Shown: positions 2,523 through 37,803 of the stretch, in pieces
How the letters are laid out: every line of letters begins with the position of its first letter
How positions within the stretch are numbered: the stretch's first letter is position 1
Source of the DNA: a virus
Lineage: Duplodnaviria; Caudoviricetes
DNA length: 56,583 bases
Virus record (IMG/VR): IMGVR_UViG_3300036785_000557
Location: 1-56,583 of that record
Strand: one strand, 5' to 3'
Position numbers and translations under genes: made by a program
The notes under the pieces: generated by a model
The model's database searches: none
What the model saw: the letters and a program-made list of their open reading frames with translations, nothing else
What the model was told of the DNA's origin: nothing

Positions 2523-3985
2523 AATCCTTCCTGTGGATTGTCCTGGTGTGTGATTTCATGGAAGCTTGTGGTGGGGCCATTGAAGGCCAGATATTCGGTG
2601 CCGGGCTCATCATCGCGCACCTTGGCAAAGATGATTTCCGCCTTGCCCGCCGCCTGTTTACGAAGCTCTTGCCATTGGCTGGCCTTGTTGGCGTTATATT
2701 CGGCCGGCCGATTTGGCGTGGCCGGTGGCGGCACATTTCCGAGGTAATATTCCTCACGGTAAATAAACATGACCGCTTCCGCGTCCTGCTCAATTTCGCC
2801 GGATTGTCGCAGATCCTCCATCGTGGGCCGCTTATCCTCGCGTGCCTCAATGCGTTTGAGCTGGGCCAGCGCCAGAATCGGGATGCCCATATCCTTCGCC
2901 AGCCGCTTCAAGCCATTTGAGACCTGCCCGACGCCCCATGTCGGCCCCATACGGGTGGTGGCCACGTCCTGCCCGACAATGTGCAGATGATCCACGATCA
3001 GGAGCCCCAGCCCGTGCTTGCGCATGGCGGTGCGGGCCTTCAGGGCGATTTGCTGGATGTTGACGCCGCTCTGGTCATCTATCGTCATGGGCAGGTTGAG
3101 AAGCCGCGTGCGGGCTTCCAGGATGCGCTGTGCCTGGGCTTCATTCCACGCCCCTTGGCGGATGACTTTCTGCGGCAAACCCGCCAGCCATGCCAGCGCG
3201 CGCCGCCCGAGCTGCGGGGCCTGCATCTCCAAGCTGACAAGACACACACCAACGCCGGTTTCTGCCACGTTGATGCCGATTTCCAGCCCGAGGGCAGTTT
3301 TACCCATGCCCGGCCGGGCCGCCAGAATATACACTGCCCCGCCTTCCAGCCCGCCGAGACGCCGATCCATGGATTTGAATCCGGTGTTGATGGACAGGGA
3401 ATTCCCGGCCGCCGTGCGTTCGCCGGCTGTGACGGCTTTATCCACCGCATCGAGGAGGCTCATAGGTTTGGAGCTGGTGGGCAATAATGTGCGCTCAAGA
3501 TCCTTGATCCCCTTCAGCACCAGCTCACGCGGCGCTGTGTCGGTGGTTTGCGCCTTGATTGCCATCTCCGCCGCCGCGTCAATCACCGACCGGCGGACCC
3601 ACATTTCATAAATGACCGAGGCGTAATCACGGGCGTTTGAAACCCCGACCATGGCCCCGAGGAGCTGCGCCAGATACGGCGGGCCGCCGACTTCAGCCAG
3701 TTTGCCATTCAGCTCGAATTCACTGCGCAGCGTCACCGCATCAGCGGTTTGCCCCAGCACGCAGCGGCGTTGAATGGCGGCGTAAATCGCGCCATGCACG
3801 GGATCTGCAAAATGTTCGGGAGCAAGAAAATCGCCTACGCGGTCATAGGCTTTGTTATTGGCGAGCAGGGTTCCGAGGAGTGCCTGTTCGGCGTGGGTGT
3901 TTGATGGTGGGGGGCCGTCATTTGCGGCGGCCGGTGGTGAAATATCATCATCAAATAGCGGCGGTAAGCGTGAAGTATTCGCCAT
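2513..3985 (-). CDS. dnaB: Replicative DNA helicase DnaB-like
   Basis: AEQALLGTLL N-domain, Walker A AARPGMGKT, SLEM, IVDHLH, LAQL, DLRQSGEIEQDA; start taken at MANTSRL. Confidence 0.95.
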   Translation of the reverse strand: MANTSRLPPLFDDDISPPAAANDGPPPSNTHAEQALLGTLLANNKAYDRVGDFLAPEHFADPVHGAIYAAIQRRCVLGQTADAVTLRSEFELNGKLAEVGGPPYLAQLLGAMVGVSNARDYASVIYEMWVRRSVIDAAAEMAIKAQTTDTAPRELVLKGIKDLERTLLPTSSKPMSLLDAVDKAVTAGERTAAGNSLSINTGFKSMDRRLGGLEGGAVYILAARPGMGKTALGLEIGINVAETGVGVCLVSLEMQAPQLGRRALAWLAGLPQKVIRQGAWNEAQAQRILEARTRLLNLPMTIDDQSGVNIQQIALKARTAMRKHGLGLLIVDHLHIVGQDVATTRMGPTWGVGQVSNGLKRLAKDMGIPILALAQLKRIEAREDKRPTMEDLRQSGEIEQDAEAVMFIYREEYYLGNVPPPATPNRPAEYNANKASQWQELRKQAAGKAEIIFAKVRDDEPGTEYLAFNGPTTSFHEITHQDNPQEGFWQ

Positions 3986-17855: not shown

Positions 17856-20201
17856 CTAACGCTCGTGCTGCTGCGCTGTTTCCGCCGTGGCTGCGCCGAG
17901 CGCCGCTGTCAGAGGGGTAGCCATGGAAGCGCGGGCAGGCAGTGGAATCGCATCGCCTTTCAAAAGCGATAGAGCCTTCTCTGGATCTGTGGCGAGACGC
18001 ACAATCTCCTCATTCACCGCCGCGTTTTGGAGCGGATTGAGTTTTTTAACCAAATGCAGAGCTGACGCCAACGCGCCCCGATGATTGCCAGTAGCCGCAT
18101 CTATTACCCCCCGCACGGCATGAACCGCGTCATCCATACCATGTTCTACATCCTCCCCCTGCCGCCCGGCCGTTGCAGAGCCGCCAAGGATTGACTGCTT
18201 GGCACCGTAAATGTCGCGCTCCCCCTGTACCGCACTCAAAAAATCATCGAGCTTTTTCTTGTTGTCGAAAATTGGCATAAGCCGCCGCCGCGCCCATAGA
18301 GCCGTCTCATCCTCCGTAAGATCGCGGACAGCGGATGAAACCACACCGCGCTTTGAAAGCGCATCTATATAAGCCTGCGCTGCGCCGATCTTATAATGTT
18401 GCTGTTCAGCCGGCGACATCTCCTCGAAAATCTTCTTAACGTCTTCAGGGTGTGAATCCATAATCTTACTACCTTGGATCATGGCCCCCAGACTCGCTGC
18501 CGGCCCGGCCCATGCTTCGCGGGCGGCCTTATAAGCCGGATTGATACGGTCAACCTCGTTGAGTAGTGCCACCCTTAATCCTTCTATTGTTCTAAGGTGT
18601 GCATCCCATTTGATTTGCCCGGTCAGCGTGTCGCGCTTGGCTTCTATCATCGCGTCCAAACCTTTTTTGGCCGCATCCAAGAGCCTCATATTCGGTGTGC
18701 CGGAGATAATCGGATCTCCTTTTTCATCCACGCCTGTAACCGCGTAATCCATCGGCTTAAAAGGAATATATTGGGCGTCCGATTCATTCTTCATAATCTC
18801 CAAGCCCTGCTTGACGCCTTCAAGCACGTTGGAATTCTTCAGCAAAACGGCAATATGCGGACTCCAAATCCCGCGTACCCCGCTGGCATCGGCGGCCACC
18901 GCTTGCTGCAACCGGGTAAGGATTTCCGCATGGCGAGCCTCGACATCCTTTAAGGCGGCCTGTGCGCTATCAACCCCAGCTTTTGCGGCTGACACCTCTC
19001 GCATGGCAGCATCATTTGCACCCATATTGCTTACAGAGGTGCTGACCCTGGTGTTAAGTTTATCGACCGCTTGCGTCAGCGTGTTTTTGGCGTTGTCTAA
19101 AGCTGCCGCTGCGGCTTTTTTAGCCTGCGACACCTGCTCAAATGCCGGCTTAAATTGATCTTCCATCGGCGATAGAATGTTTGGGTTCATCGCCTCCGCA
19201 TAGAGCGGCGCTGACGATTCTATTTGGCTGTCCTTGAGCGCGTCATGGACATCACGACTTGTTTCCGGTGAATCAAACGCCGTCCGTGCTGCGGCCACAA
19301 GACGGTCCTTGACGGCCGTAAGCCTGCCGGCAACTTTGTTTGTGCCAAAGTTATATTCAAGAATCGCATCGCCAGCGCCTAGACCGCGTGCCGCCGCACC
19401 CACCGCGCCGCGTACTTTCCGGCCACCAGCTTCCAGAAGCGATGTTGGCACGCCGAGCGCGTGATTGGTTGTGACGGCCTTAATGATGTCATCTACTTTA
19501 GCCCCGCCCGCCTTCTCATCTTGGGCGACTTTTACCATAAGTTTGCGTGTCGCTTCAGATTTTATGAAATCGGGCTTGTTGCGTGCAGCCCATTTGCCGA
19601 AGCCAGATTTAACGATACCCAAACCTTCAGCGCCCGCCCCAAACGCCTCACTGGCGGCAACATTGATGCCCGTTTCAAAGCCTTTTGCTTTCCAATAGTC
19701 TGCGCCGGTCTTATTCGGGTCTATCGGTTGCTCCACACCGGCCACGCCGCCAATGCGCGCCGCTTGCAGCCCTTTACCGACCAATGTAGCGGCTGGTGCC
19801 ATCTCCCCTTCTGGTGCAATGGCGGCGGCCGGTAACGCCCCGGCCACCTCGCCCACGCCGGTTGCGATTGGGTGTGCGGCGCTGTACGGCGCTTCCTGTT
19901 GCGCGACCGTGGCTAAGCGTTTGGCCGCATCGGCGGACAGAAACCCACCAACACGCCGATCAATTCCACCGGCTGGGCCATAGAGATCACCGATGGCGGA
20001 AAGTCCCTTGCCGGCGAGCTGTTCCGTGCCCAGCACTGCCCGGCCAATACCAGCGCTTGCACCCTCTGCCGCTGATTTCAGTGTACTCGGCGGCGGGTGC
20101 GCAGCGGCATAGGTCTTCATCACCTTACCGATGACATCCTGGCCGGTGCCATTCGGAAAAACATGCTTGACGCCATCGGCACTGACTGCGGTGATGGTCA
20201 T
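17856..20201 (-). CDS. Internal virion / DNA ejection protein (781 aa)
   Basis: Ala/Gly-rich and helical; last of three large ORFs after the nozzle, as in P22/T7 layouts. Confidence 0.6.
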   Translation of the reverse strand: MTITAVSADGVKHVFPNGTGQDVIGKVMKTYAAAHPPPSTLKSAAEGASAGIGRAVLGTEQLAGKGLSAIGDLYGPAGGIDRRVGGFLSADAAKRLATVAQQEAPYSAAHPIATGVGEVAGALPAAAIAPEGEMAPAATLVGKGLQAARIGGVAGVEQPIDPNKTGADYWKAKGFETGINVAASEAFGAGAEGLGIVKSGFGKWAARNKPDFIKSEATRKLMVKVAQDEKAGGAKVDDIIKAVTTNHALGVPTSLLEAGGRKVRGAVGAAARGLGAGDAILEYNFGTNKVAGRLTAVKDRLVAAARTAFDSPETSRDVHDALKDSQIESSAPLYAEAMNPNILSPMEDQFKPAFEQVSQAKKAAAAALDNAKNTLTQAVDKLNTRVSTSVSNMGANDAAMREVSAAKAGVDSAQAALKDVEARHAEILTRLQQAVAADASGVRGIWSPHIAVLLKNSNVLEGVKQGLEIMKNESDAQYIPFKPMDYAVTGVDEKGDPIISGTPNMRLLDAAKKGLDAMIEAKRDTLTGQIKWDAHLRTIEGLRVALLNEVDRINPAYKAAREAWAGPAASLGAMIQGSKIMDSHPEDVKKIFEEMSPAEQQHYKIGAAQAYIDALSKRGVVSSAVRDLTEDETALWARRRLMPIFDNKKKLDDFLSAVQGERDIYGAKQSILGGSATAGRQGEDVEHGMDDAVHAVRGVIDAATGNHRGALASALHLVKKLNPLQNAAVNEEIVRLATDPEKALSLLKGDAIPLPARASMATPLTAALGAATAETAQQHER

Positions 20202-29789: not shown

Positions 29790-30854
29790 TTACAGAACAG
29801 CCGGAGGCCCGGCGACATTCGGCCATGCCGGCGCGGCAAGGCCCGTGATGTGCGCGCCAGATGAAGGCTTGGCGCAAACCAGATTAAGCGCGGTGAGCAA
29901 CACGCCGATGGAGGCGAGCTGGCCGAGCGGGATCAGAGATTCAAAGCCGGTGAAGATGAAGGGCGCGGCTTCAGACACGTACATGGCGAGGTAGCGCGAA
30001 TTGATCGCGTACATCTCACCGCGCGGGCACCACGGATCTGGGAAGATCGGCGTGTTCAACACCTGGATGGCGCGGAAGCCGGAATTCACCACATCGCCCT
30101 TGCCATAGCGCGAGCGCGGGTTGGTCATGAATTGCTCCAGACCCATGAAATCAGTCATGAGTGTGGCCCAATCGGCGGGGTTCATCACCGCAAAATCGGC
30201 ATCCTCGCCGCCGGCCCCGGTCATCACGCGCGTCAGGGTGATGGCCATGCCACCACGGGACGCCACCTGCCCGACACCGCCGGAATTCGGATAATACTGG
30301 CCCTGCCAGAAGGCGTTGGTTTTGGCGATGCCGCCGTAAGAGGCAACATTGGTGCCGTTATCGTAGGCCCCGAGGAGCGAATCCAGCGCATTCGGATTGT
30401 TGGTGTTGTTGGTATAGAGCGCCTGCGCCAACGCCTGTTTGATGACGATTGCCGCGTCCGCCGTCACCGCGCGGAGTTTCGGAATAATCACCTCGGAGGA
30501 TTGTACGATGGCTTCCAGGTTGAAGAAGCCAATCGGCACCATGCCGATTTTGAGGTTGAAGGTCGCATTTTGAATAGCGGCCTGATCCTCGGGCATCGGG
30601 AAGTCGCCCGCGAAGCTACCCCAGTTGAAGGAGGTGAAGGACGATCCCTGCGTGGGGATGGTGATCTGCGACACACCACCGCGCGCGGCTTGCGCATTGG
30701 CGAGGAGCAAGGAGAGCAACGGATGGCTCTGGTAGATCTGGACAAACAACGAAGGAACAACGGCGCGGCGCGTGATGTTCTGGAGTTGCTGACCTAGTGC
30801 CCCAGTTGGGGTAAGGCCGCCAGACAGGCCAGCCGTAAAGGTGGTTTGGGACAC
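29790..30854 (-). CDS. Major capsid protein
   Basis: 354 aa after the scaffold; YGGI....NAFW and PIFPDPWCPRGEMYAINSRYL motifs; GAGGAG SD. Confidence 0.8.
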   Translation of the reverse strand: MSQTTFTAGLSGGLTPTGALGQQLQNITRRAVVPSLFVQIYQSHPLLSLLLANAQAARGGVSQITIPTQGSSFTSFNWGSFAGDFPMPEDQAAIQNATFNLKIGMVPIGFFNLEAIVQSSEVIIPKLRAVTADAAIVIKQALAQALYTNNTNNPNALDSLLGAYDNGTNVASYGGIAKTNAFWQGQYYPNSGGVGQVASRGGMAITLTRVMTGAGGEDADFAVMNPADWATLMTDFMGLEQFMTNPRSRYGKGDVVNSGFRAIQVLNTPIFPDPWCPRGEMYAINSRYLAMYVSEAAPFIFTGFESLIPLGQLASIGVLLTALNLVCAKPSSGAHITGLAAPAWPNVAGPPAVL

Positions 30855-30888: not shown

Positions 30889-31485
30889 TTACGCGGCGTC
30901 TTCATTCATAATTTGGGCAGTCATCTTGTCCTGCCACGCGACTGGATCTCGATGCAGTTCCGCAATACTCTCGTCCGAACCGCTGGTGTCGCCAGTGCCA
31001 AACAGATTCATTTTCTGCGGCAGATATCCGTTGCCTTTGAGCGGCGCGGGCGGCTTCGGAAGCGTTTCGATGAAGGCTGGTGCTGCCAACGCAGGATCGG
31101 CGGTGCCCTTCTCCGTCATGAAGGCGATGAATTTTTCCTTGGTCTCGCCTGTGAAGCCGCGTGCGGTTGCGATGCGATCAACGTCCGCCTGCAAACCGCC
31201 AAGCGCCTTCTCATTTTGCGAGGCAAGCTGTTGCGCGTCGTAGGTTTCCTGAAGTTTTTTCAGGGCGGCGCGTGTTTCCTCCAACTCGGACTTCATCGGC
31301 GCAAGAAGCTTCTCGCCTTGGTCGATGACGGGGAAGTTGAGTTTTGGATCAAGCTTCTTCAGGCGGCGCTGGATGTCGAGACCATCCTCGCCGGACGTGA
31401 GCTTGTCCAATAACGAATAGGCAGTGCGCAGAGCGGCCAGTTCGGACGCGGGAATCTGCTCAATCTCATCTGGTTTCCCGGCCAT
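30889..31485 (-). CDS. Scaffolding protein (putative)
   Basis: Coiled-coil, acidic, immediately upstream of the MCP. Confidence 0.6.
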   Translation of the reverse strand: MAGKPDEIEQIPASELAALRTAYSLLDKLTSGEDGLDIQRRLKKLDPKLNFPVIDQGEKLLAPMKSELEETRAALKKLQETYDAQQLASQNEKALGGLQADVDRIATARGFTGETKEKFIAFMTEKGTADPALAAPAFIETLPKPPAPLKGNGYLPQKMNLFGTGDTSGSDESIAELHRDPVAWQDKMTAQIMNEDAA

Positions 31486-31487
31486 GA

Positions 31488-31667
31488 TTATGTACCGTTC
31501 GTGGAGTTACCGACATGCGGAATCGCCATGCCGGTATTACGCGTGCCGTTCGGCATTCCTGCCGGTGTCGCGCCAATAGCGGTGGTGTCGAATGGCACCA
31601 CCTTCTGAATCGGTTCCTTGCCCTCGGCAGGAACGGTGTTGACGTATGGGCCTGGACCTTTAGCCAT
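31488..31667 (-). CDS. Small protein (59 aa, MAKGPGPYVNTVPAEGKEPIQKVVPFDTTAIGATPAGMP...)
   Basis: GAGGAG SD; fills the gap exactly; below the ORF-track cutoff. Confidence 0.7.
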   Translation of the reverse strand: MAKGPGPYVNTVPAEGKEPIQKVVPFDTTAIGATPAGMPNGTRNTGMAIPHVGNSTNGT

Positions 31668-31682
31668 CTTCAGACTCCTCGA

Positions 31683-32201
31683 TTAAGCCGCTTCTTGATC
31701 TGGACCGGGGCCGCCACCGGGCGGTCCTGGCGGTGGCGCCGCTGGCGGCGGCGGTGTCATTGCCGGCGGCGCATTCGGTGGCGCTTGCGCCATCTGCGCG
31801 AGCTGCGCGTGCGGTTGCTGTTGGGCTACCTGCTGGGCGGCCATGCGAAGCTGCTGGATCTGCTGTTGATCGGCGCCCACACCCGTATCTGGAATGTGCT
31901 TGGCGAGCTGACCAACTGTCTTTAGCAGATCGTTATGAAAATCTGATCCCATCGGGATGGCGGGCAACGCGGTCTGGATCAGCAATAACGCTGTTCGGAC
32001 CTTTGCAATGGCCGCCAATGTGTTTCCGGGATTGCCTTGCGGGCCTGCTACTCCACCCGTGCCGGGTGGCGCGGCCATCATGCTTGGCGGTAAGGGGGCC
32101 GGGCCAGCCGGACCCCCTGGACCTGGACCGGCAGGGACTCCACCACCACTCCGCATGAGCGCGGCGAGTTGCGGGGGGACTTGGCCCTGCGCGGCTGACA
32201 T
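31683..32201 (-). CDS. Pro/Gly/Gln-rich head-module protein
   Basis: TAATG-coupled to the upstream peptide ORF; central helical core. Confidence 0.65.
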   Translation of the reverse strand: MSAAQGQVPPQLAALMRSGGGVPAGPGPGGPAGPAPLPPSMMAAPPGTGGVAGPQGNPGNTLAAIAKVRTALLLIQTALPAIPMGSDFHNDLLKTVGQLAKHIPDTGVGADQQQIQQLRMAAQQVAQQQPHAQLAQMAQAPPNAPPAMTPPPPAAPPPGPPGGGPGPDQEAA

Positions 32202-32239
32202 TACTTGCGGCCCTTACGGTGCCCTTTGCGACGTGCCAT
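32201..32239 (-). CDS. Basic micropeptide 2: MARRKGHRKGRK
   Basis: AGGAGG SD; TAATG overlap with the next gene; paralog of 32295-32330. Confidence 0.75.
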   Translation of the reverse strand: MARRKGHRKGRK

Positions 32240-32294
32240 CGAATCCTCCTCGGATTAAATTATTGCGGGAAAGGCGAAACAGTCTCAGGGACCG

Positions 32295-32330
32295 TTACTT
32301 ACGGCCCTTGCGGTGACCCTTACGTTTCAT
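32295..32330 (-). CDS. Basic micropeptide 1: MKRKGHRKGRK
   Basis: GGAG SD 7 nt before ATG; over the shared nine codons it differs from peptide 2 only at synonymous sites. Confidence 0.75.
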   Translation of the reverse strand: MKRKGHRKGRK

Positions 32331-32485
32331 GACACAGCTCCACTTGGGTTGTGGGGAGTCCGGGCAACCCGGTCCCTTTGTGTTTCGCCCATATCGGCGT
32401 CCGAGACTCGTATTCCCAAATCGGCAAAAAAGTCAATTAAATTGGAATATTATTCTCCAACATGACTCTCATCGCAATTATTTTT

Positions 32486-34366
32486 CTAAGTTTTTACGAG
32501 TTTTGGTCCCGATGGCGGGCCGCCCGCCCCTGGCTTTTGCTGCTGTGCCTGGGCTTGCGCCGCCGCCTGCGCCGCCTGTGCCTGCGCGGCTTGCGCAATC
32601 ATCGCCTTCACCTCGGCCTCGTGCGCGTCAGCCACAATTTCATCGACATTCTGCGGGTTAATCATCTCGATAAATTGCTCTGGCGAGATCGCACCCGCCT
32701 TCTTCAGCACCAGCGCCTTCTGTATGCCCTCATCGCCAAAGGCCGGGCTGGCACTATGGCTGTCCACCATGACGCGGATGGTCTGCGGCAGATCGTGCAT
32801 TTTGAATTGCACAGGGCGCATCCCATCGGCCGGCGGCACCAGCGTCGGATCATCCGGGATACCCGCCGCTTCATCCGAGGCGGGCGGCATGTACCAGCCG
32901 ACCAGCGTATCAATGCTCTTGGCCCGCAAGAGATCTGTAACAATGGCGGCAGATTTTTGAATCGCGCGCTCGATGCGGATGGCTTTTTGCTTGAAGCGTG
33001 GCGTGGCGTTTTTAGTCATCTGCTCCGCCTGCCCTGCCGTGCGTACCGAGCCCGACGCCATGCCCTGCAATGTTGGCGTCATGCCGGTCATCACATCGAA
33101 CATGCGCTCAGATTCCTTCAGGCTCTCATACAGCCCCGGCGGCAAGGTCGGTGCCAACATCACGGGCGGTTTAGCGGTGATGTCATTCTCATACAGCCAG
33201 CCGCCCGGCTTGGTCAGCTTGGACTTCTTCTGTTGCGTCATCGTCGTGCCACCCTGGAACCATGCGGGCGGATCTTCCTGAAGGCGCAGGAGCCGGTTGA
33301 TGCCGTTGACGCGTTTATTTACTGAAGATTGCAGCAAAGCAAGATTTGCTATTTCACTGCGGCCCCAGAAATAGCCGGCCAAACGGTTGGGGCAAAACTC
33401 CACGAAAGGCTGCTTGAAGGCCAGCGGATTGCCCTCATCCGGCGCGCGGTGAAATGTCTTATTGTTCGGGTCGAGCATGTCAGCCCAGATATTCATGCGC
33501 TGCTCCCGGCCAAAGATGATGACGTTGCCGACCAACTGAAGCGTCGTCCACTCCCGCCGGCCTTCATCGTCCTGGCGCGCGTCATCCTTGATCCACAGCT
33601 CGTCCACGCGGATGAGATCGGTGATAACCTTGGGGTCGAAGCTCGGGTACGGCCCGGCCAGCCATTGCACCATGCCGTTGGGGGTCTGCGGATTGGCGCT
33701 GCCGATGCCACCCTGCCCCTGGTACGGCTGGAAGCCACCCAGAATTACCTGCTTGAGTAAAGCGGCCTGATCCGGCGAATCAGCGCTGCGGGTCTGCGTG
33801 GCAAACCCCATCGCGCGCTTGTAGATCTTCTCTTTATCGGGATGGTCGCGGATCAGGAGCTTGAATTGGTCGGTGGTGATGTAGGTTGAATGGGTGAAAG
33901 CCTCCTGCTCATCGAGCGTTTGCAGATCCGGCCGGTACACCCCCATGAATTCCGGCATCACCAGCACGGGTTCAAGCCCGTTCACAGACCAGAGGTGCTT
34001 GATGAAGGTTTTGCCCAGCACCAGGGACCAGCGCGTGGCCTCCTCATACTGCGTATCCAGATCGCAGGCCCGCGATTGCTCCAGCACTTCATCGGCCGCC
34101 GCCGCGCCCTTGGCGCGCTCCACCTTACTGCCGCCATACCGGAATTTGACCTTGAATCGGAGGTCCACCGAGCTGCATAGGAACGATGTCATGTCCTCTA
34201 TGGCGTCGAATGTTTTGTTGAAAATTTCAGCATCGCCTTGCTCGTTCCCGACGAGGTAGAGATTGCGGAAAAAGGCCGATTTTTGCAGCCGGTCCATACG
34301 GTCGGACGTGCAGATGTTGGCGATCTCGCCGCACCACTCCTCCATGCCACGATCTGGAATAATCAT
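32486..34366 (-). CDS. Portal protein
   Basis: 626 aa downstream of the terminase; PFVEFCPN...YFWGRS and MTGMTP..QG motifs typical of podoviral portals. Confidence 0.75.
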   Translation of the reverse strand: MIIPDRGMEEWCGEIANICTSDRMDRLQKSAFFRNLYLVGNEQGDAEIFNKTFDAIEDMTSFLCSSVDLRFKVKFRYGGSKVERAKGAAAADEVLEQSRACDLDTQYEEATRWSLVLGKTFIKHLWSVNGLEPVLVMPEFMGVYRPDLQTLDEQEAFTHSTYITTDQFKLLIRDHPDKEKIYKRAMGFATQTRSADSPDQAALLKQVILGGFQPYQGQGGIGSANPQTPNGMVQWLAGPYPSFDPKVITDLIRVDELWIKDDARQDDEGRREWTTLQLVGNVIIFGREQRMNIWADMLDPNNKTFHRAPDEGNPLAFKQPFVEFCPNRLAGYFWGRSEIANLALLQSSVNKRVNGINRLLRLQEDPPAWFQGGTTMTQQKKSKLTKPGGWLYENDITAKPPVMLAPTLPPGLYESLKESERMFDVMTGMTPTLQGMASGSVRTAGQAEQMTKNATPRFKQKAIRIERAIQKSAAIVTDLLRAKSIDTLVGWYMPPASDEAAGIPDDPTLVPPADGMRPVQFKMHDLPQTIRVMVDSHSASPAFGDEGIQKALVLKKAGAISPEQFIEMINPQNVDEIVADAHEAEVKAMIAQAAQAQAAQAAAQAQAQQQKPGAGGPPSGPKLVKT

Positions 34367-35294: not shown

Positions 35295-37145
35295 CTAAGC
35301 TAAACCCCTATCCGATAGATATTGGTTGGGTTCCGGCTCATCGACGGGGGCGTTAAGCATGGTGAAAATCTTAGCGTTCAGGATCTCGGATATTTTAGCT
35401 TCCAGATGATCGGGCGTGACCATCACACGGTTGTAGGTAAGGCCCTGGGAGATCAAATTCGGGCGAAACCACTGCTTCCAGGCGACATCGGCCAGCGCAG
35501 CGGCGAACACGCGGTCATCATGCAGGCCGGAGGGTGCGCCGATCTCCCCGCCATCCTGCACCACGGCCATCATTTCCTTCAGGCAAGGCACCGAATGCAC
35601 CGCGAGCTGCGAGGTGATGAGGGAATCACGCAGGCCGGAGAGCATCGTCCACTTGCTGCGGTGCGTGGTCTCCCAGTTATAGGCGTAGCCCGGCCCCATA
35701 GAGTCCGGCCGGTGGTAGAGATACCAGCGCATGGTCTCCAGATAGTCCGACGCGCCGTCATGCCCGATGGCCTTCTGATATTCCTCAGAACGGAGCTGTT
35801 CACGAAGCGATTTCAGCTCATTCATCACCGCATGACCAGGCCCCCCGATCTCCAGGTTCACCATGCAGTTCTTGTAATAGCCCGCCATATACGCCAGCAC
35901 CCAGGCCACTTGCCGCGTGTCGCATTTATTGTCGGCATATTCCGCCACCTGCACCATTTTATCCGCGAAGCACCGGAACACGCTGATGCAGTGCCGGTCG
36001 TTATTGTCGTTGCGGCCGAATGCGGGGTCTGCGCCGATCACGTATTGCGCGCCATCCGCCGGTTCGGTCCAAACACGCAGCTCCACCTCGGCCACGCGCC
36101 GTGCATCGTCAATCCACTCCATTTTGGAGGCTTTGAAATCATTCCCGAGGTAGAATTTGAAGCCCATGAAGGGCACTTCGCGGGCCACCTCAATGAGATC
36201 TGCCACATTGCGGGTCTGGAAAAAGCTGTAGCCGGTCTGAATGAAGGCATCATTCTCAGTCCACGGCTGGCTTTCATCCAGACTTTCGGCCGTGGTGGCT
36301 TTGCTGCTTTCACGCCAGCGATACCACGCCAATTGTTCGGCCGAAATCTTGTGATTGTAGAGGTCTTTGACGGCCTCGATGCGCTCTTGCTCGCGCGGGG
36401 TTGGGTGCGCGGCGCCGAACACCTTGAAACGCGGGTCGCGGCGCGAGATGGCGTTCTGCGGCTTGGCCCACCAGCCGACAAAGATGCGGCCACGGGTGAA
36501 AATATCCTCGCCGGCATCCTCCCACATCCGCATCCAGTGATTCATGCCGTGCGCGGTGGACTCGAACAGGTAAAGCCGGTCGGGATTATGCTCGGAAAGG
36601 GTCTCCATGAAGGATTGCAGGCCCTCGGCCCGCCCGTATTTGGAAACCTCGGTGAGCAACGCCACGGTGTAGGCGCGAGATTCACCCCATGTCGTCTTGC
36701 TCTTGCCCGCCACCAGGAAATCCAGGCGCGAGCCATTGGAAAATTGCATGTATTTCGAGTTTGACGCGGTAATGGTGAAGGCTTTGCCAAAATACTGGGT
36801 CGGAAAACTGTCCATGTAGCGCGTCAGAATGTCGCGGAACACGTCGCGGTTGGGATCGTTATCGACCACCAGCGCGCCAAAGATCCGGGGATGCACGGCC
36901 AGCCAGAACAGCAAGATGGCCAAGGTAACGGTGGTCACGCCGAGCTGCCGGGATTTCAGAATATAAAAAACGTGGACACCATTGGTCAGGCTGGTGCCCA
37001 CGTAATTCAAAACCCGGCTCTGACTGTCCCATAAGACCAGCTTGGAGCCCCGCTCATCGGTCGAAGGGGCTTCTTTCGAGACAATCCGCAAATTGTCTAT
37101 GAAGTTTGAGAATAGCGGCAACCATTTTTGCAGCTTACCCGCCAA
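35295..37145 (-). CDS. terL: Terminase large subunit
   Basis: Walker A ILKSRQLGVTT, ESTAHG coupling motif, nuclease IGADPAFG and HDDRVFA. Confidence 0.92.
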   Translation of the reverse strand: MAGKLQKWLPLFSNFIDNLRIVSKEAPSTDERGSKLVLWDSQSRVLNYVGTSLTNGVHVFYILKSRQLGVTTVTLAILLFWLAVHPRIFGALVVDNDPNRDVFRDILTRYMDSFPTQYFGKAFTITASNSKYMQFSNGSRLDFLVAGKSKTTWGESRAYTVALLTEVSKYGRAEGLQSFMETLSEHNPDRLYLFESTAHGMNHWMRMWEDAGEDIFTRGRIFVGWWAKPQNAISRRDPRFKVFGAAHPTPREQERIEAVKDLYNHKISAEQLAWYRWRESSKATTAESLDESQPWTENDAFIQTGYSFFQTRNVADLIEVAREVPFMGFKFYLGNDFKASKMEWIDDARRVAEVELRVWTEPADGAQYVIGADPAFGRNDNNDRHCISVFRCFADKMVQVAEYADNKCDTRQVAWVLAYMAGYYKNCMVNLEIGGPGHAVMNELKSLREQLRSEEYQKAIGHDGASDYLETMRWYLYHRPDSMGPGYAYNWETTHRSKWTMLSGLRDSLITSQLAVHSVPCLKEMMAVVQDGGEIGAPSGLHDDRVFAAALADVAWKQWFRPNLISQGLTYNRVMVTPDHLEAKISEILNAKIFTMLNAPVDEPEPNQYLSDRGLA

Positions 37146-37803
37146 GGAAATTCCCTCTTAATATCGAATCAACCAATGACATCACAGGAGGGGGTGGGTG
37201 TGTCTTAGCGCGTTCCACCTCAAATTCATATTCCATTAAAATTTCAATGGCTTTGTCGGCGGCTTTGAGGTTGCGATCCTGAAAAGCGATCTGCTCCGCG
37301 CAACTCGTGATGCGCCCCGCGATCATCGCCTCCAGCAAATTTGGCTCATCGGATTTATGGCGGCGCTTGAACCGACGCACGAGCCGCTGATTCACAGCCC
37401 GTATGCGCTCGATGTTGGTTTTGTTATCGCGCGCAGACTGCTTATATTTTTCCAGACTATACTTCATCCGAGACACAAGATTGAATGACGTGATGAAATC
37501 AACGCCAGAATTCTTGGCGATGTCGGCCATCACCTCATCAAGCGCGGTTGAGACCAGATTCATGGCCTCGGCAAAGGCATTGTCGGGGGATTTCTCGCTG
37601 CAATCGCCTGTGGCATCGTACTTTGCCCGGCGCTCTGCATCGCCCAGAATATCATGCGCCAACTTCACCAGAGCAAAGCTTTCCGCGCTGCCGGTCTCCT
37701 GATTATCCGGGTGCGCCTTCTTCGCTTTACTGCGATAAGCACGGTGGATGGCCGCCTTATCGGCGGTCTTTGGTACGTCTAAAATCTCATATAAGTCCTT
37801 CAT
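37135..37803 (-). CDS. J-domain (DnaJ-like) protein
   Basis: DLYEILDV...AYRSKAKKAHPD...F..VKLAHDILGD.ERRAKYD. Confidence 0.9.
   Translation of the reverse strand: MKDLYEILDVPKTADKAAIHRAYRSKAKKAHPDNQETGSAESFALVKLAHDILGDAERRAKYDATGDCSEKSPDNAFAEAMNLVSTALDEVMADIAKNSGVDFITSFNLVSRMKYSLEKYKQSARDNKTNIERIRAVNQRLVRRFKRRHKSDEPNLLEAMIAGRITSCAEQIAFQDRNLKAADKAIEILMEYEFEVERAKTHPPPPVMSLVDSILRGNFLGG

Follow-up and report, generated by a model that had tools for sequence, protein, structure and literature searches.

Conserved polybasic micro-genes between the portal and capsid genes of a tailed phage lineage

Introduction

Small, strongly basic gene products associated with viral genomes have been described for several virus groups. 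Protein J of phiX174 (Microviridae) is a small, very basic DNA-binding protein encoded among the morphogenesis genes, which binds the genome and enters the capsid together with it. About 120 copies coat each replicative-form DNA, and the protein guides DNA between binding pockets (PMC13386984). In adenovirus, the basic core proteins VII, V and mu are bound to the dsDNA inside the virion, and the protamine-like protein VII condenses the DNA (PMC4189039). Mu is an Arg/His-rich peptide of about 19 residues, and mu and VII are cut from precursors by the viral protease. In heads of tailed phages such as T4, polyamines neutralize part of the packaged DNA charge; these small polycations are host metabolites without a sequence-specific motif.

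Very short conserved ORFs can also be regulatory. Leader and arrest peptides such as TnaC, SecM and ErmL are encoded by very short ORFs in the 5' leader of an operon, with conservation counted from the stall or stop site and often a hairpin downstream, and the E. coli leader peptide PepNL arrests at its stop codon (PMC11890864). Furthermore, the arginine-rich motif of the lambda N protein is encoded just downstream of the boxB hairpin on the same transcript and upstream of terminators. In this study, two mini-ORFs encoding 11- and 12-residue polybasic peptides in the head module of an uncultured phage were analyzed and compared with these systems. The literature searches, which were limited to abstracts, found no description of polybasic mini-genes in phage head modules.

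Results

Two polybasic mini-ORFs are located between the portal and capsid genes

The analyzed stretch of DNA (the window, W) comprises 56,583 nucleotides of the IMG/VR record IMGVR_UViG_3300036785_000557 (Duplodnaviria; Caudoviricetes) and represents a complete 56.6-kb phage genome. The features of the region, all on the minus strand, are as follows:

32486..34366 (-), portal gene (626 aa), upstream neighbour
32408..32436 (-), promoter-like box read from the sequence: TTGACT (32436-32431), 17 nt, then GGGAATACGA
32386..32399 (-), predicted leader hairpin 1 (CGCC...GGCG), probably near the 5' end of the transcript
32353..32376 (-), predicted leader hairpin 2 (GGGA-CCGGG-TTG-CCCGG-AC-TCCCC), whose 3' arm is anti-SD-like
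32338..32341 (-), SD of ORF1 (GGAG), predicted to pair with the upstream CCUC in the leader fold
32295..32330 (-), mini-gene 1 (ORF1), MKRKGHRKGRK plus TAA
32245..32250 (-), SD of ORF2 (AGGAGG), 5 nt before the ATG
32201..32239 (-), mini-gene 2 (ORF2), MARRKGHRKGRK plus TAA, whose stop overlaps the start of the next gene (TAATG)
32202..32373 (-), hypervariable cassette comprising hairpin 2 and both mini-genes
31683..32201 (-), p172, a Pro/Gly-rich 172-aa protein with a predicted three-helix core and a weak SD
30889..31485 (-), p198, an acidic protein predicted to be all-helical, in the scaffold position (inferred)
29790..30854 (-), major capsid protein (354 aa), used as the anchor for the family survey

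The sequence-only reading, which had described two tandem ultra-basic mini-ORFs, each with its own SD and the second coupled to the next gene, was correct in its observation. Over the shared RKGHRKGRK codons, five differences were counted, all at third positions and all synonymous. In 400,000 simulations of five random substitutions, the probability was 3.45e-4 for all being synonymous and 1.56e-3 for all being at third positions. Among 813 ATG mini-ORFs of 5–25 aa in the window, only three feature a K+R fraction of at least 0.5 and at least 8 aa, namely these two and the 8-aa MRRRAGLK at 19519. A stricter scan requiring an SD and a basic C-terminal 9-mer returned only the two.

Regarding the neighbouring genes, the portal ORF matches phrog_156 (E 2.3e-6), with sub-threshold Pfam hits to P22_portal and SU10_portal, and the capsid ORF matches the major head protein family phrog_9953 (E 2.9e-19). 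For p172, no PHROG or Pfam family was found; its structural model (pLDDT 64) features helices 58-81, 87-102 and 108-138. The p198 protein (pI 4.8, net charge -8) was modelled with a pLDDT of 76 and a long helix 52-108. Foldseek searches with both models returned nothing at E <= 0.001 in BFVD or PDB, and the scaffold designation for the genes in between is inferred from position and helical models only.

The mini-genes recur at the same site in related phages

In order to evaluate conservation, which had been named beforehand as a criterion, related loci were surveyed with the capsid protein as anchor. The same site downstream of the portal gene holds one to three such mini-ORFs in 87 of 89 non-redundant related loci and in 68 of 72 loci of a more distant set. 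Moreover, they are present in 6 of 7 MAG-binned contigs and in two GenBank phage genomes (MW202753 and MW202825) featuring only 36% capsid identity, where they are unannotated and opposite-strand CDS calls are present instead. In a search at 1e-5, no cultured phage matched, and the only two hits were metagenome-derived records. A blastn search of the region against 50,697 phage records found no match. The seven MAG contigs carry seven different taxon labels (Eisenbacteria, Ramlibacter, Opitutales, Acidobacteriaceae, Geobacteraceae, Rhizobiales, Methylocapsa), and four of them are 48.9–64.0 kb, about the size of a whole phage genome; the labels were interpreted as binning noise that does not identify the host.

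Tandem copies occur in 25 of 89 loci, and in the loci L098 and L119 of the survey a second copy is located elsewhere in the module, at about -620/-630. Five or six lineages lack the mini-gene, indicating that it is not strictly essential. In the lineages without it (survey loci L161, L162, L215, L224, L136 and L111), no neighbouring protein carries a polybasic tail. A blastn comparison of W with its nearest relative, L002, aligned 34223-32374 (83.2%) and 32201-29701 (82.6%), but nothing in between; L002 nevertheless encodes three basic mini-ORFs there. The cassette is swapped between both genomes, while both flanks stay about 83% identical.

Sequence evidence for coding capacity and selection

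In 860,574 nt, 107 SD-preceded basic mini-ORFs were located on the gene strand, against 1 on the opposite strand, and 97 of the 107 fall in one 500-nt interval. In the more distant set, 0 hits were obtained on the opposite strand of the same regions. As controls, lambda and P22 yielded 0 hits, and 50 kb of SU10 yielded only 2 off-frame intragenic hits. In 32 nearest-neighbour pairs, differences at the three codon positions amounted to 55/43/108, and ORF divergence was 0.17, against 0.49–0.50 in the flanks. Furthermore, the K+R count differs by a mean of 0.34 between nearest relatives, against 2.22 under random mutation (0 of 300 replicates as low).

Based on duplex energies, the SD of ORF2 (-11.8 kcal/mol) is stronger than that of all 69 long ORFs of the genome, whereas the values for ORF1 and p172 are -5.6 kcal/mol and -4.9, respectively. 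Family medians are -7.4 for the mini-ORFs, -6.3 for the capsid gene and -3.3 for p172, the latter having a weak SD in 32 of 52 loci. The gap from the mini-ORF stop to the ATG of p172 is mostly 45–90 nt or an overlap, with stop/start overlaps or gaps of 4–27 nt in some clades. Codon use resembles that of the capsid gene: CGT+CGC make up 0.81 of Arg codons, against 0.72 in the capsid gene and 0.55 in long ORFs, rare Arg codons make up 0.04 against 0.21, and TAA stops account for 55 of 74 against 298 of 625.

Each peptide of W comprises 11–12 residues with seven Lys/Arg, one His and no acidic or hydrophobic residue and ends in the family core described below; the family features a median net charge of +7 and a composition of R 0.37, K 0.25 and H 0.07. 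The peptides share a C-terminal core R-[KR]-x-x-R-x-x-R-K-stop, with Arg at positions -9, -5 and -2 (0.76, 0.80 and 0.89) and Lys at -1 (0.77) in 128 distinct peptides, whereas N-terminal length varies from 9 to 23 aa. Some lineages add a short hydrophobic (e.g., MFTIPGV...) or acidic N-terminus to the basic tail.

Promoter-like and RNA structural context

TTGAC is located within -120..-41 of the first mini-ORF in 36 of 62 distinct upstream regions, against 73 of 1240 random windows (6%). A sigma-70 scan did not score this box in W, but two other promoter-like sites, 32477-32449 and 32288-32259. All four pairs of leader hairpin 1 are kept in 10–11 of 11 sequences of the close clade without covariation, and it folds alike in 11 of 11. 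Hairpin 2 folds in 11 of 11 clade members with at least five different inner-stem sequences and with compensatory changes, and its outer GGGA/UCCC pairs were recovered by RNAalifold. Stem and loop are not conserved in other clades, and no leader hairpin precedes the first mini-ORF of MW202753 and MW202825. Rfam 15 returned 0 matches at E <= 1 for positions 31500-33000.

On the downstream side, 34 of 64 mini-ORFs are followed by a strong hairpin, with stop-to-hairpin offsets of 0–29 nt. Only 3 of these 34 show a T-run within the 50-nt window examined, which cuts some tails. W has no significant hairpin after ORF1 or ORF2 (z = +0.6 and +0.8), and several further clades also lack one. In MW202753 and MW202825, hairpins and a TTGACA box separate the mini-ORFs from the next gene.

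Discussion

Based on these results, the mini-ORFs are genuine, selected genes of a conserved micro-gene family of this phage lineage, representing the first cistrons behind a promoter-like box just after the portal gene, at the head of the head-morphogenesis genes. This much rests on the comparative data; their efficient translation is predicted from SD strength and codon use, and any DNA binding, presence in virions or ribosome stalling is inferred. The interpretation given in the sequence-only reading is partly supported: selection on the peptide is strongly supported by conservation of position, strand, SD, charge and C-terminal motif across more than 150 related loci, escape from gene callers is supported by the GenBank relatives, and duplication is correct for this genome and 25 of 89 relatives, whereas the proposed protamine-like DNA-condensing or RNA-binding function is plausible on present evidence, but hypothetical.

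The leading hypothesis, held tentatively (probability of about 0.4), is that the free peptide acts in trans as a polycation on a polyanion, most likely the phage's own DNA while it is being packaged or once inside the head. It would serve as counter-ion or anchor, similar to protein J, the adenovirus core proteins or polyamines in T4 heads. In this view, two tandem copies that differ only at synonymous sites would raise the dose without leaving a long identical DNA repeat, and in this genome the second copy would also pass ribosomes to the weakly initiating next gene through the TAATG overlap. A high dose is suggested by the SD strength, codon use, TAA stops and tandem copies, and the position in the head module fits a head-related role, as inferred from phage gene order. 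Moreover, the varying hairpin layout, the promoter-like box downstream of the mini-ORFs in MW202753 and MW202825 and the swapped cassette indicate that the family is not tied to one RNA layout. However, Arg and Lys are not interchangeable, which is more specific than a plain counter-ion needs, conservation is anchored at the stop codon as in nascent-chain arrest peptides, and the hairpins, the predicted pairing of the ORF1 SD in the close clade and the weak SD of p172 would also fit a regulatory leader. In addition, free 11-mers are good substrates for cytoplasmic oligopeptidases.

Compared with protein J, the longer family members share the two-part design of a non-basic end and a basic tail. 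However, J belongs to ssDNA phages whose packaging is coupled to synthesis, is longer (37 aa in phiX174, about 24–25 aa in relatives) and has a hydrophobic capsid-binding end; the peptides of W have no hydrophobic residue, and there is no detectable homology. The composition of the family is close to that of adenovirus mu, but the peptides are encoded directly as 11–12-codon genes with their own start and stop, without a precursor, and host, virus lineage and motor-driven phage packaging all differ.

The main rival, though doubtful, is a cis-acting leader or arrest peptide, in which the nascent basic chain, read at fixed distances from the stop codon, would slow or block termination. The parked ribosome would then control formation of the downstream hairpin (read-through into the scaffold-capsid genes) or re-initiation at the SD-poor next gene, and the free peptide would have no role. 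This reading is favoured by the location of the ORFs as the first on a putative leader behind the TTGAC box, the downstream hairpins (a few with T-runs), the stop-anchored motif with its variable N-terminus, and the weak SD of p172 with a gap of mostly 45–90 nt or an overlap before its ATG. R/K-x-R/K nascent motifs are arrest-prone when a ligand sits in the exit tunnel (PMC12583479), and most known conserved ORFs of less than 20 codons in bacteria are regulatory. On the other hand, W lacks hairpins after both ORFs, offsets are spread, T-runs are few within the 50-nt window examined, and the total charge is conserved rather than only the residues near the stop. Tandem identical peptides, the strongest SD of the genome and capsid-like codon use suggest yield rather than sensing, and the box between the mini-ORFs and the next gene in the GenBank relatives as well as the displaced copies in L098 and L119 also argue against it. 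The known bacterial examples are not polybasic, not tandemly duplicated with identical peptides and not the best-initiated ORFs of their genome, and a limited literature search for polybasic arrest in bacteria found no ligand-free case. A leader peptide sensing Arg/Lys-tRNA charging was set aside, since it would not explain the fixed Arg versus Lys positions and makes little sense for head genes. Lambda bar-type minigenes, comprising 2–3 codons, were set aside because of length.

A trans-acting RNA-binding peptide of the arginine-rich-motif kind, binding hairpins of its own transcript (leader hairpin 2 or the downstream hairpins) and tuning translation, mRNA stability or read-through of the head operon, is unlikely. 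The layout of promoter, hairpin, Arg-rich gene and terminators recalls pL-nutL-N-tL1 of lambda, where nutL lies just upstream of N. The fixed Arg positions, the close-clade hairpin just upstream of ORF1 with compensatory stem changes and short A-rich loops (GAAAT, CAAAG, GAGAA, GAGA), and the hairpins flanking the ORFs in many clades are in line with it. However, the upstream hairpin is not conserved outside the close clade, the loop of W is TTG, the GenBank relatives show no such leader hairpin, and no Rfam family matches. Moreover, lambda N is a protein of about 107 residues (the lambda annotation lists a 133-codon CDS) with further domains, and an 11-mer has no room for the NusA- and polymerase-binding parts that N needs.

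Similarly unlikely is a trans-acting peptide with another target, such as a host polyanion or protein (ribosome, polyphosphate, nucleoid, an acidic defence or assembly protein such as p198). The evidence for a selected polycation, predicted to be abundantly made, applies equally and p198 next door is acidic, but nothing points to a particular target, the fixed position argues for a head-related role, and no fused form was found on neighbouring proteins in lineages lacking the mini-gene. A pure ribosome-loading upstream ORF, in which only translation and coupling to p172 would matter, is suggested by the stop/start overlaps and the weak SD of p172, but is very unlikely, since it cannot explain the conserved charge, the C-terminal motif, the five synonymous differences or ORF1, which is coupled to nothing. 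Chance ORFs without function, conceivable given their very short length, are contradicted by the comparative data.

A bolder and doubtful extension of the leading hypothesis is that a large clade of uncultured tailed phages (genomes of about 34–66 kb) directly encodes its own 'protamine', a 9–23-residue polycation with the core R-[KR]-x-x-R-x-x-R-K. In this view, it would be made in great excess from tiny, hairpin-bracketed messages and loaded with the DNA into the head, by the hundreds to thousands of copies, as a sequence-defined counter-ion or anchor, and would escape both gene callers and trypsin-based proteomics.

If the peptide is a virion or packaging component, it would be the first gene-encoded polycation of tailed dsDNA phages and would give a handle on how packaged DNA charge is neutralized, a question so far answered mainly with host polyamines and salt. 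If it is instead a cis-acting polybasic arrest peptide, it would represent a new class of nascent-chain regulator controlling capsid-gene dosage. Either way, the finding shows that a nearly universal core gene of a widespread phage lineage can be only 11–13 codons long and be missed, or replaced by false opposite-strand calls, in deposited genomes, which matters for phage annotation and for virion proteomics relying on trypsin.

Two polybasic mini-ORFs downstream of the portal gene

The two mini-ORFs reported in the sequence-only reading were recovered on the minus strand of the window as described there. Their elements are as follows:

32341-32338, minus strand: GGAG, preceding the first mini-ORF
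32330-32295, minus strand: first mini-ORF (ORF1), ATG AAA CGT AAG GGT CAC CGC AAG GGC CGT AAG TAA, encoding MKRKGHRKGRK
32250-32245, minus strand: AGGAGG, preceding the second mini-ORF
32239-32201, minus strand: second mini-ORF (ORF2), ATG GCA CGT CGC AAA GGG CAC CGT AAG GGC CGC AAG TAA, encoding MARRKGHRKGRK; its stop overlaps the ATG of a 172-aa ORF (TAATG)

The nine codons shared by both ORFs differ at five positions, all of which are third positions and all of which are synonymous. In 400,000 simulated trials, five random substitutions were all synonymous with P = 3.45e-4. Since five of the nine third positions differ, the pair does not represent a fresh duplication or a recent gene conversion. 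Among 813 ATG mini-ORFs of 5-25 aa in the window, three reached K+R >= 0.5 with a length of at least 8 aa, namely these two and an 8-mer at 19519. A stricter family scan returned only these two.

Genomic context

The window represents a complete virus record of 56,583 bp with direct terminal repeats. Along the minus strand, the gene order comprises a J-domain protein (PF00226), the large terminase (phrog_2), two small ORFs, the portal gene (phrog_156, E 2.3e-6), the 285-nt spacer harboring the mini-ORFs, the genes for p172, p59 and p198, the major capsid protein (MCP) gene (phrog_9953, E 2.9e-19) and a gene for an Ig-like structural protein. Members of this module include the following:

37135-37803, minus strand: 222-aa protein with a full DnaJ (J) domain (PF00226, E 1.5e-17), encoded just upstream of the large terminase
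31683-32201, minus strand: p172, Pro/Gly-rich protein
29790-30854, minus strand: major capsid protein

The N-terminus of the J-domain protein recurs in the related loci L004 and L005. For p172 a three-helix core was predicted, whereas p198 is acidic (pI 4.8) and predicted to be all-helical. Neither of them showed a family or fold match in the searches performed, and a scaffold role is therefore inferred from position. The capsid gene appears to start with GTG (VSQTTF...), or with TTG in the related locus L006, behind a strong SD (-9.5 kcal/mol).

Occurrence in related phage genomes

Searches with the portal and p172 sequences identified five viral contigs. The three contigs reaching the site (L002, L004 and L006, with portal identities of 89-56%) each carry two or three basic, SD-preceded mini-ORFs there. 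Subsequently, an alignment of capsid proteins (A1) was used to retrieve 80 viral and 55 metagenome loci, of which 115 (860,574 nt) remained after removal of contained duplicates. In these loci, ATG ORFs of 8-22 aa with K+R >= 0.45 numbered 147 on the gene strand and 19 on the opposite strand; when an SD was required, the counts were 107 and 1, respectively. Of the 107, 97 are located between -1750 and -1251 nt from the capsid gene start. Among the 89 loci with at least 2000 nt of upstream sequence, 78 possess such an ORF (53 have one and 25 have two). Applying a relaxed filter, it was recovered in 9 of the other 11 loci, either with a longer non-basic N-terminus or displaced by an insertion, while L111 and L136 have none. 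In two loci of the survey, a further SD-preceded basic mini-ORF (MLRDRMKRMMGRRR in L098, MHRKSRKKMRK in L119) lies closer to the capsid gene, about 620-630 nt upstream of it. The micro-gene can therefore be located at a second place in the module.

A second alignment based on distant capsids (A2) provided 80 more loci, of which 73 are non-redundant and 72 have enough upstream sequence. Of these, 68 carry the mini-ORF. On the opposite strand of the same regions 0 SD-preceded hits were found, and 6 were found elsewhere in 454 kb. The two sets overlap slightly, as the first locus of the second set is the same contig as one locus of the first. Furthermore, contigs were deduplicated only by exact containment and close relatives were accordingly counted separately, so that the number of distinct peptides (64 in the first set; 128 over 163 loci) is the fairer measure. 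Controls applying the same scan gave 0 hits in lambda, 0 in P22 and 2 off-frame intragenic hits in 50 kb of SU10.

Furthermore, two GenBank phage genomes with 36% capsid identity (MW202753 and MW202825) contain two tandem mini-ORFs following the portal gene and a 54-aa ORF. They encode MRKAYKKTRKTRR and MARAKRKGRKARK in one record, and MYKKHKRSRKTRR and MARKARKTRKGRK in the other. Instead of these, both records annotate opposite-strand hypothetical proteins over the stretch holding the two SD-preceded mini-ORFs (3419-3717 in the MW202753 locus and 3435-3695 in the MW202825 locus), which are probably false calls. Moreover, six of seven contigs binned into MAGs (L141-L147) carry the mini-ORFs, the seventh having too little upstream sequence. 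These MAGs are labelled with seven unrelated taxa, and the labels should not be used as host assignments.

Coding signatures

In 32 nearest-neighbour pairs of equal length, differences were distributed 55/43/108 over codon positions 1/2/3. The ORFs diverge by 0.17 per site, compared to 0.49 and 0.50 in the 36-nt flanks, although the flank comparison is ungapped and indels inflate it. The K+R count differs by 0 (21 pairs) or 1 (11 pairs), corresponding to a mean of 0.34, whereas random mutation of the same extent gives 2.22; 0 of 300 replicates were as low. Codon choice equals or exceeds that of the capsid gene. CGT+CGC account for 0.81, compared to 0.72 (MCP) and 0.55 (long ORFs), rare Arg codons for 0.04 compared to 0.09 and 0.21, and AAG for 0.78 compared to 0.78 and 0.64. 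TAA stops were observed in 55 of 74 cases, compared to 298 of 625.

The SD of ORF2 (-11.8 kcal/mol) is stronger than that of all 69 long ORFs of the genome. Across 52 loci, median SD values are -7.4 for the mini-ORFs, -6.3 for the capsid gene and -3.3 for p172. In 32 of these 52 loci, p172 has a weak or absent SD, and it starts 45-90 nt after the last mini-ORF or overlaps it. Most homologues of p172 (alignment A4) and of p198 end in Ala-Ala.

Composition and C-terminal motif of the peptides

The peptides are composed of R 0.37, K 0.25, G 0.09 and H 0.07. Lengths range from 9 to 23 aa, and His is present in 88 of 128 distinct peptides. Aligning these 128 peptides from the C-terminus revealed the following residue preferences.

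Main residues by position, counted from the C-terminus (128 distinct peptides)
Position -1: K 0.77 (basic 0.96)
Position -2: R 0.89
Positions -3 and -4: G, K, R or H
Position -5: R 0.80
Positions -6 and -7: variable
Position -8: K or R, 0.73
Position -9: R 0.76

The resulting core is R-[KR]-x-x-R-x-x-R-K-stop, and RKGHRKGRK of the genome under study (W) fits it exactly. Arg and Lys are therefore not freely interchangeable, which points to a specific contact rather than bulk charge alone.

RNA context

In the close clade (11 sequences), the portal terminator hairpin is followed by a TTGAC box, hairpin 1 (CGCC/GGCG) and a CACA/UGUG-closed domain. This domain holds hairpin 2 (GGGA, an inner stem with at least five different sequences, then UCCC) and a small CCUC/GAGG helix pairing the SD of ORF1. 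Thereafter, ORF1 and a hairpin, ORF2 and a terminator-like hairpin, and finally p172 follow. Across the family, TTGAC is located upstream in 36 of 62 distinct regions, compared to 6% of random windows. A leader hairpin is located near -38 in many clades, but its sequence is not conserved.

A strong hairpin (z < -2) follows 34 of 64 mini-ORFs. Its offset from the stop ranges from 0 to 29 nt, and few have T-runs within the window examined. W has no hairpin after either ORF. In L061, L047, L055, L066, L070 and L072 (100 nt upstream of the listed mini-ORF), a canonical-looking terminator with a stem of 11-15 bp, a tetraloop such as GAAA, GTGA or GCAA and a T-rich tail is located between an upstream longer mini-ORF ending ...HRKGRK and a second, Cys-containing mini-ORF.

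Between W and its nearest relative L002, the flanks align at about 83% identity on both sides, whereas the sharply bounded stretch 32373-32202 does not align at all with L002 positions 1848-2152. Nevertheless, both versions of this cassette encode basic mini-peptides. L002 holds three mini-ORFs, two of which are Val/Ser-containing (MARRVHVRSHTRRR, MRKSVRVSVRRRRR).

Interpretation

Based on the comparative analyses, the mini-ORFs are conserved, strand-specific, SD-driven and codon-optimised, and their charge and C-terminal motif are under selection. By contrast, the function of the peptides, including their actual production and any binding to DNA or RNA, is inferred. Of the sequence-only reading, the claim of selection on the peptide is strongly supported, whereas the protamine-like DNA-condensing or RNA-binding role is plausible.

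A trans-acting polycation that would bind the phage DNA during or after packaging is tentatively favored, with a probability of about 0.40. This proposal rests on the dose features (tandem copies, best SD, best codons), the independence from any one RNA layout, the cassette-like turnover, the position within the head module and the two-part design of the longer members. The main rival, a cis-acting leader or arrest peptide, is considered less likely. It is favored by the stop-anchored motif, the promoter-leader-hairpin setting and the SD-poor next gene, and precedents exist in PepNL (PMC11890864) and in the arrest-prone R/K-x-R/K motif (PMC12583479). An ARM-like RNA binder is improbable on present evidence, and another target in trans only marginally more doubtful. 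A pure coupling uORF is very unlikely, and chance occurrence can practically be dismissed.

Literature searches, evaluated at the level of listings and the beginnings of abstracts, returned nothing on such genes. The nearest known systems, such as protein J (PMC13386984) and the adenovirus core proteins (PMC4189039), are analogues and not relatives. Although the micro-gene may turn out to encode a new kind of leader peptide, it is therefore regarded here as a new form of the small basic viral nucleic-acid-binding peptides.
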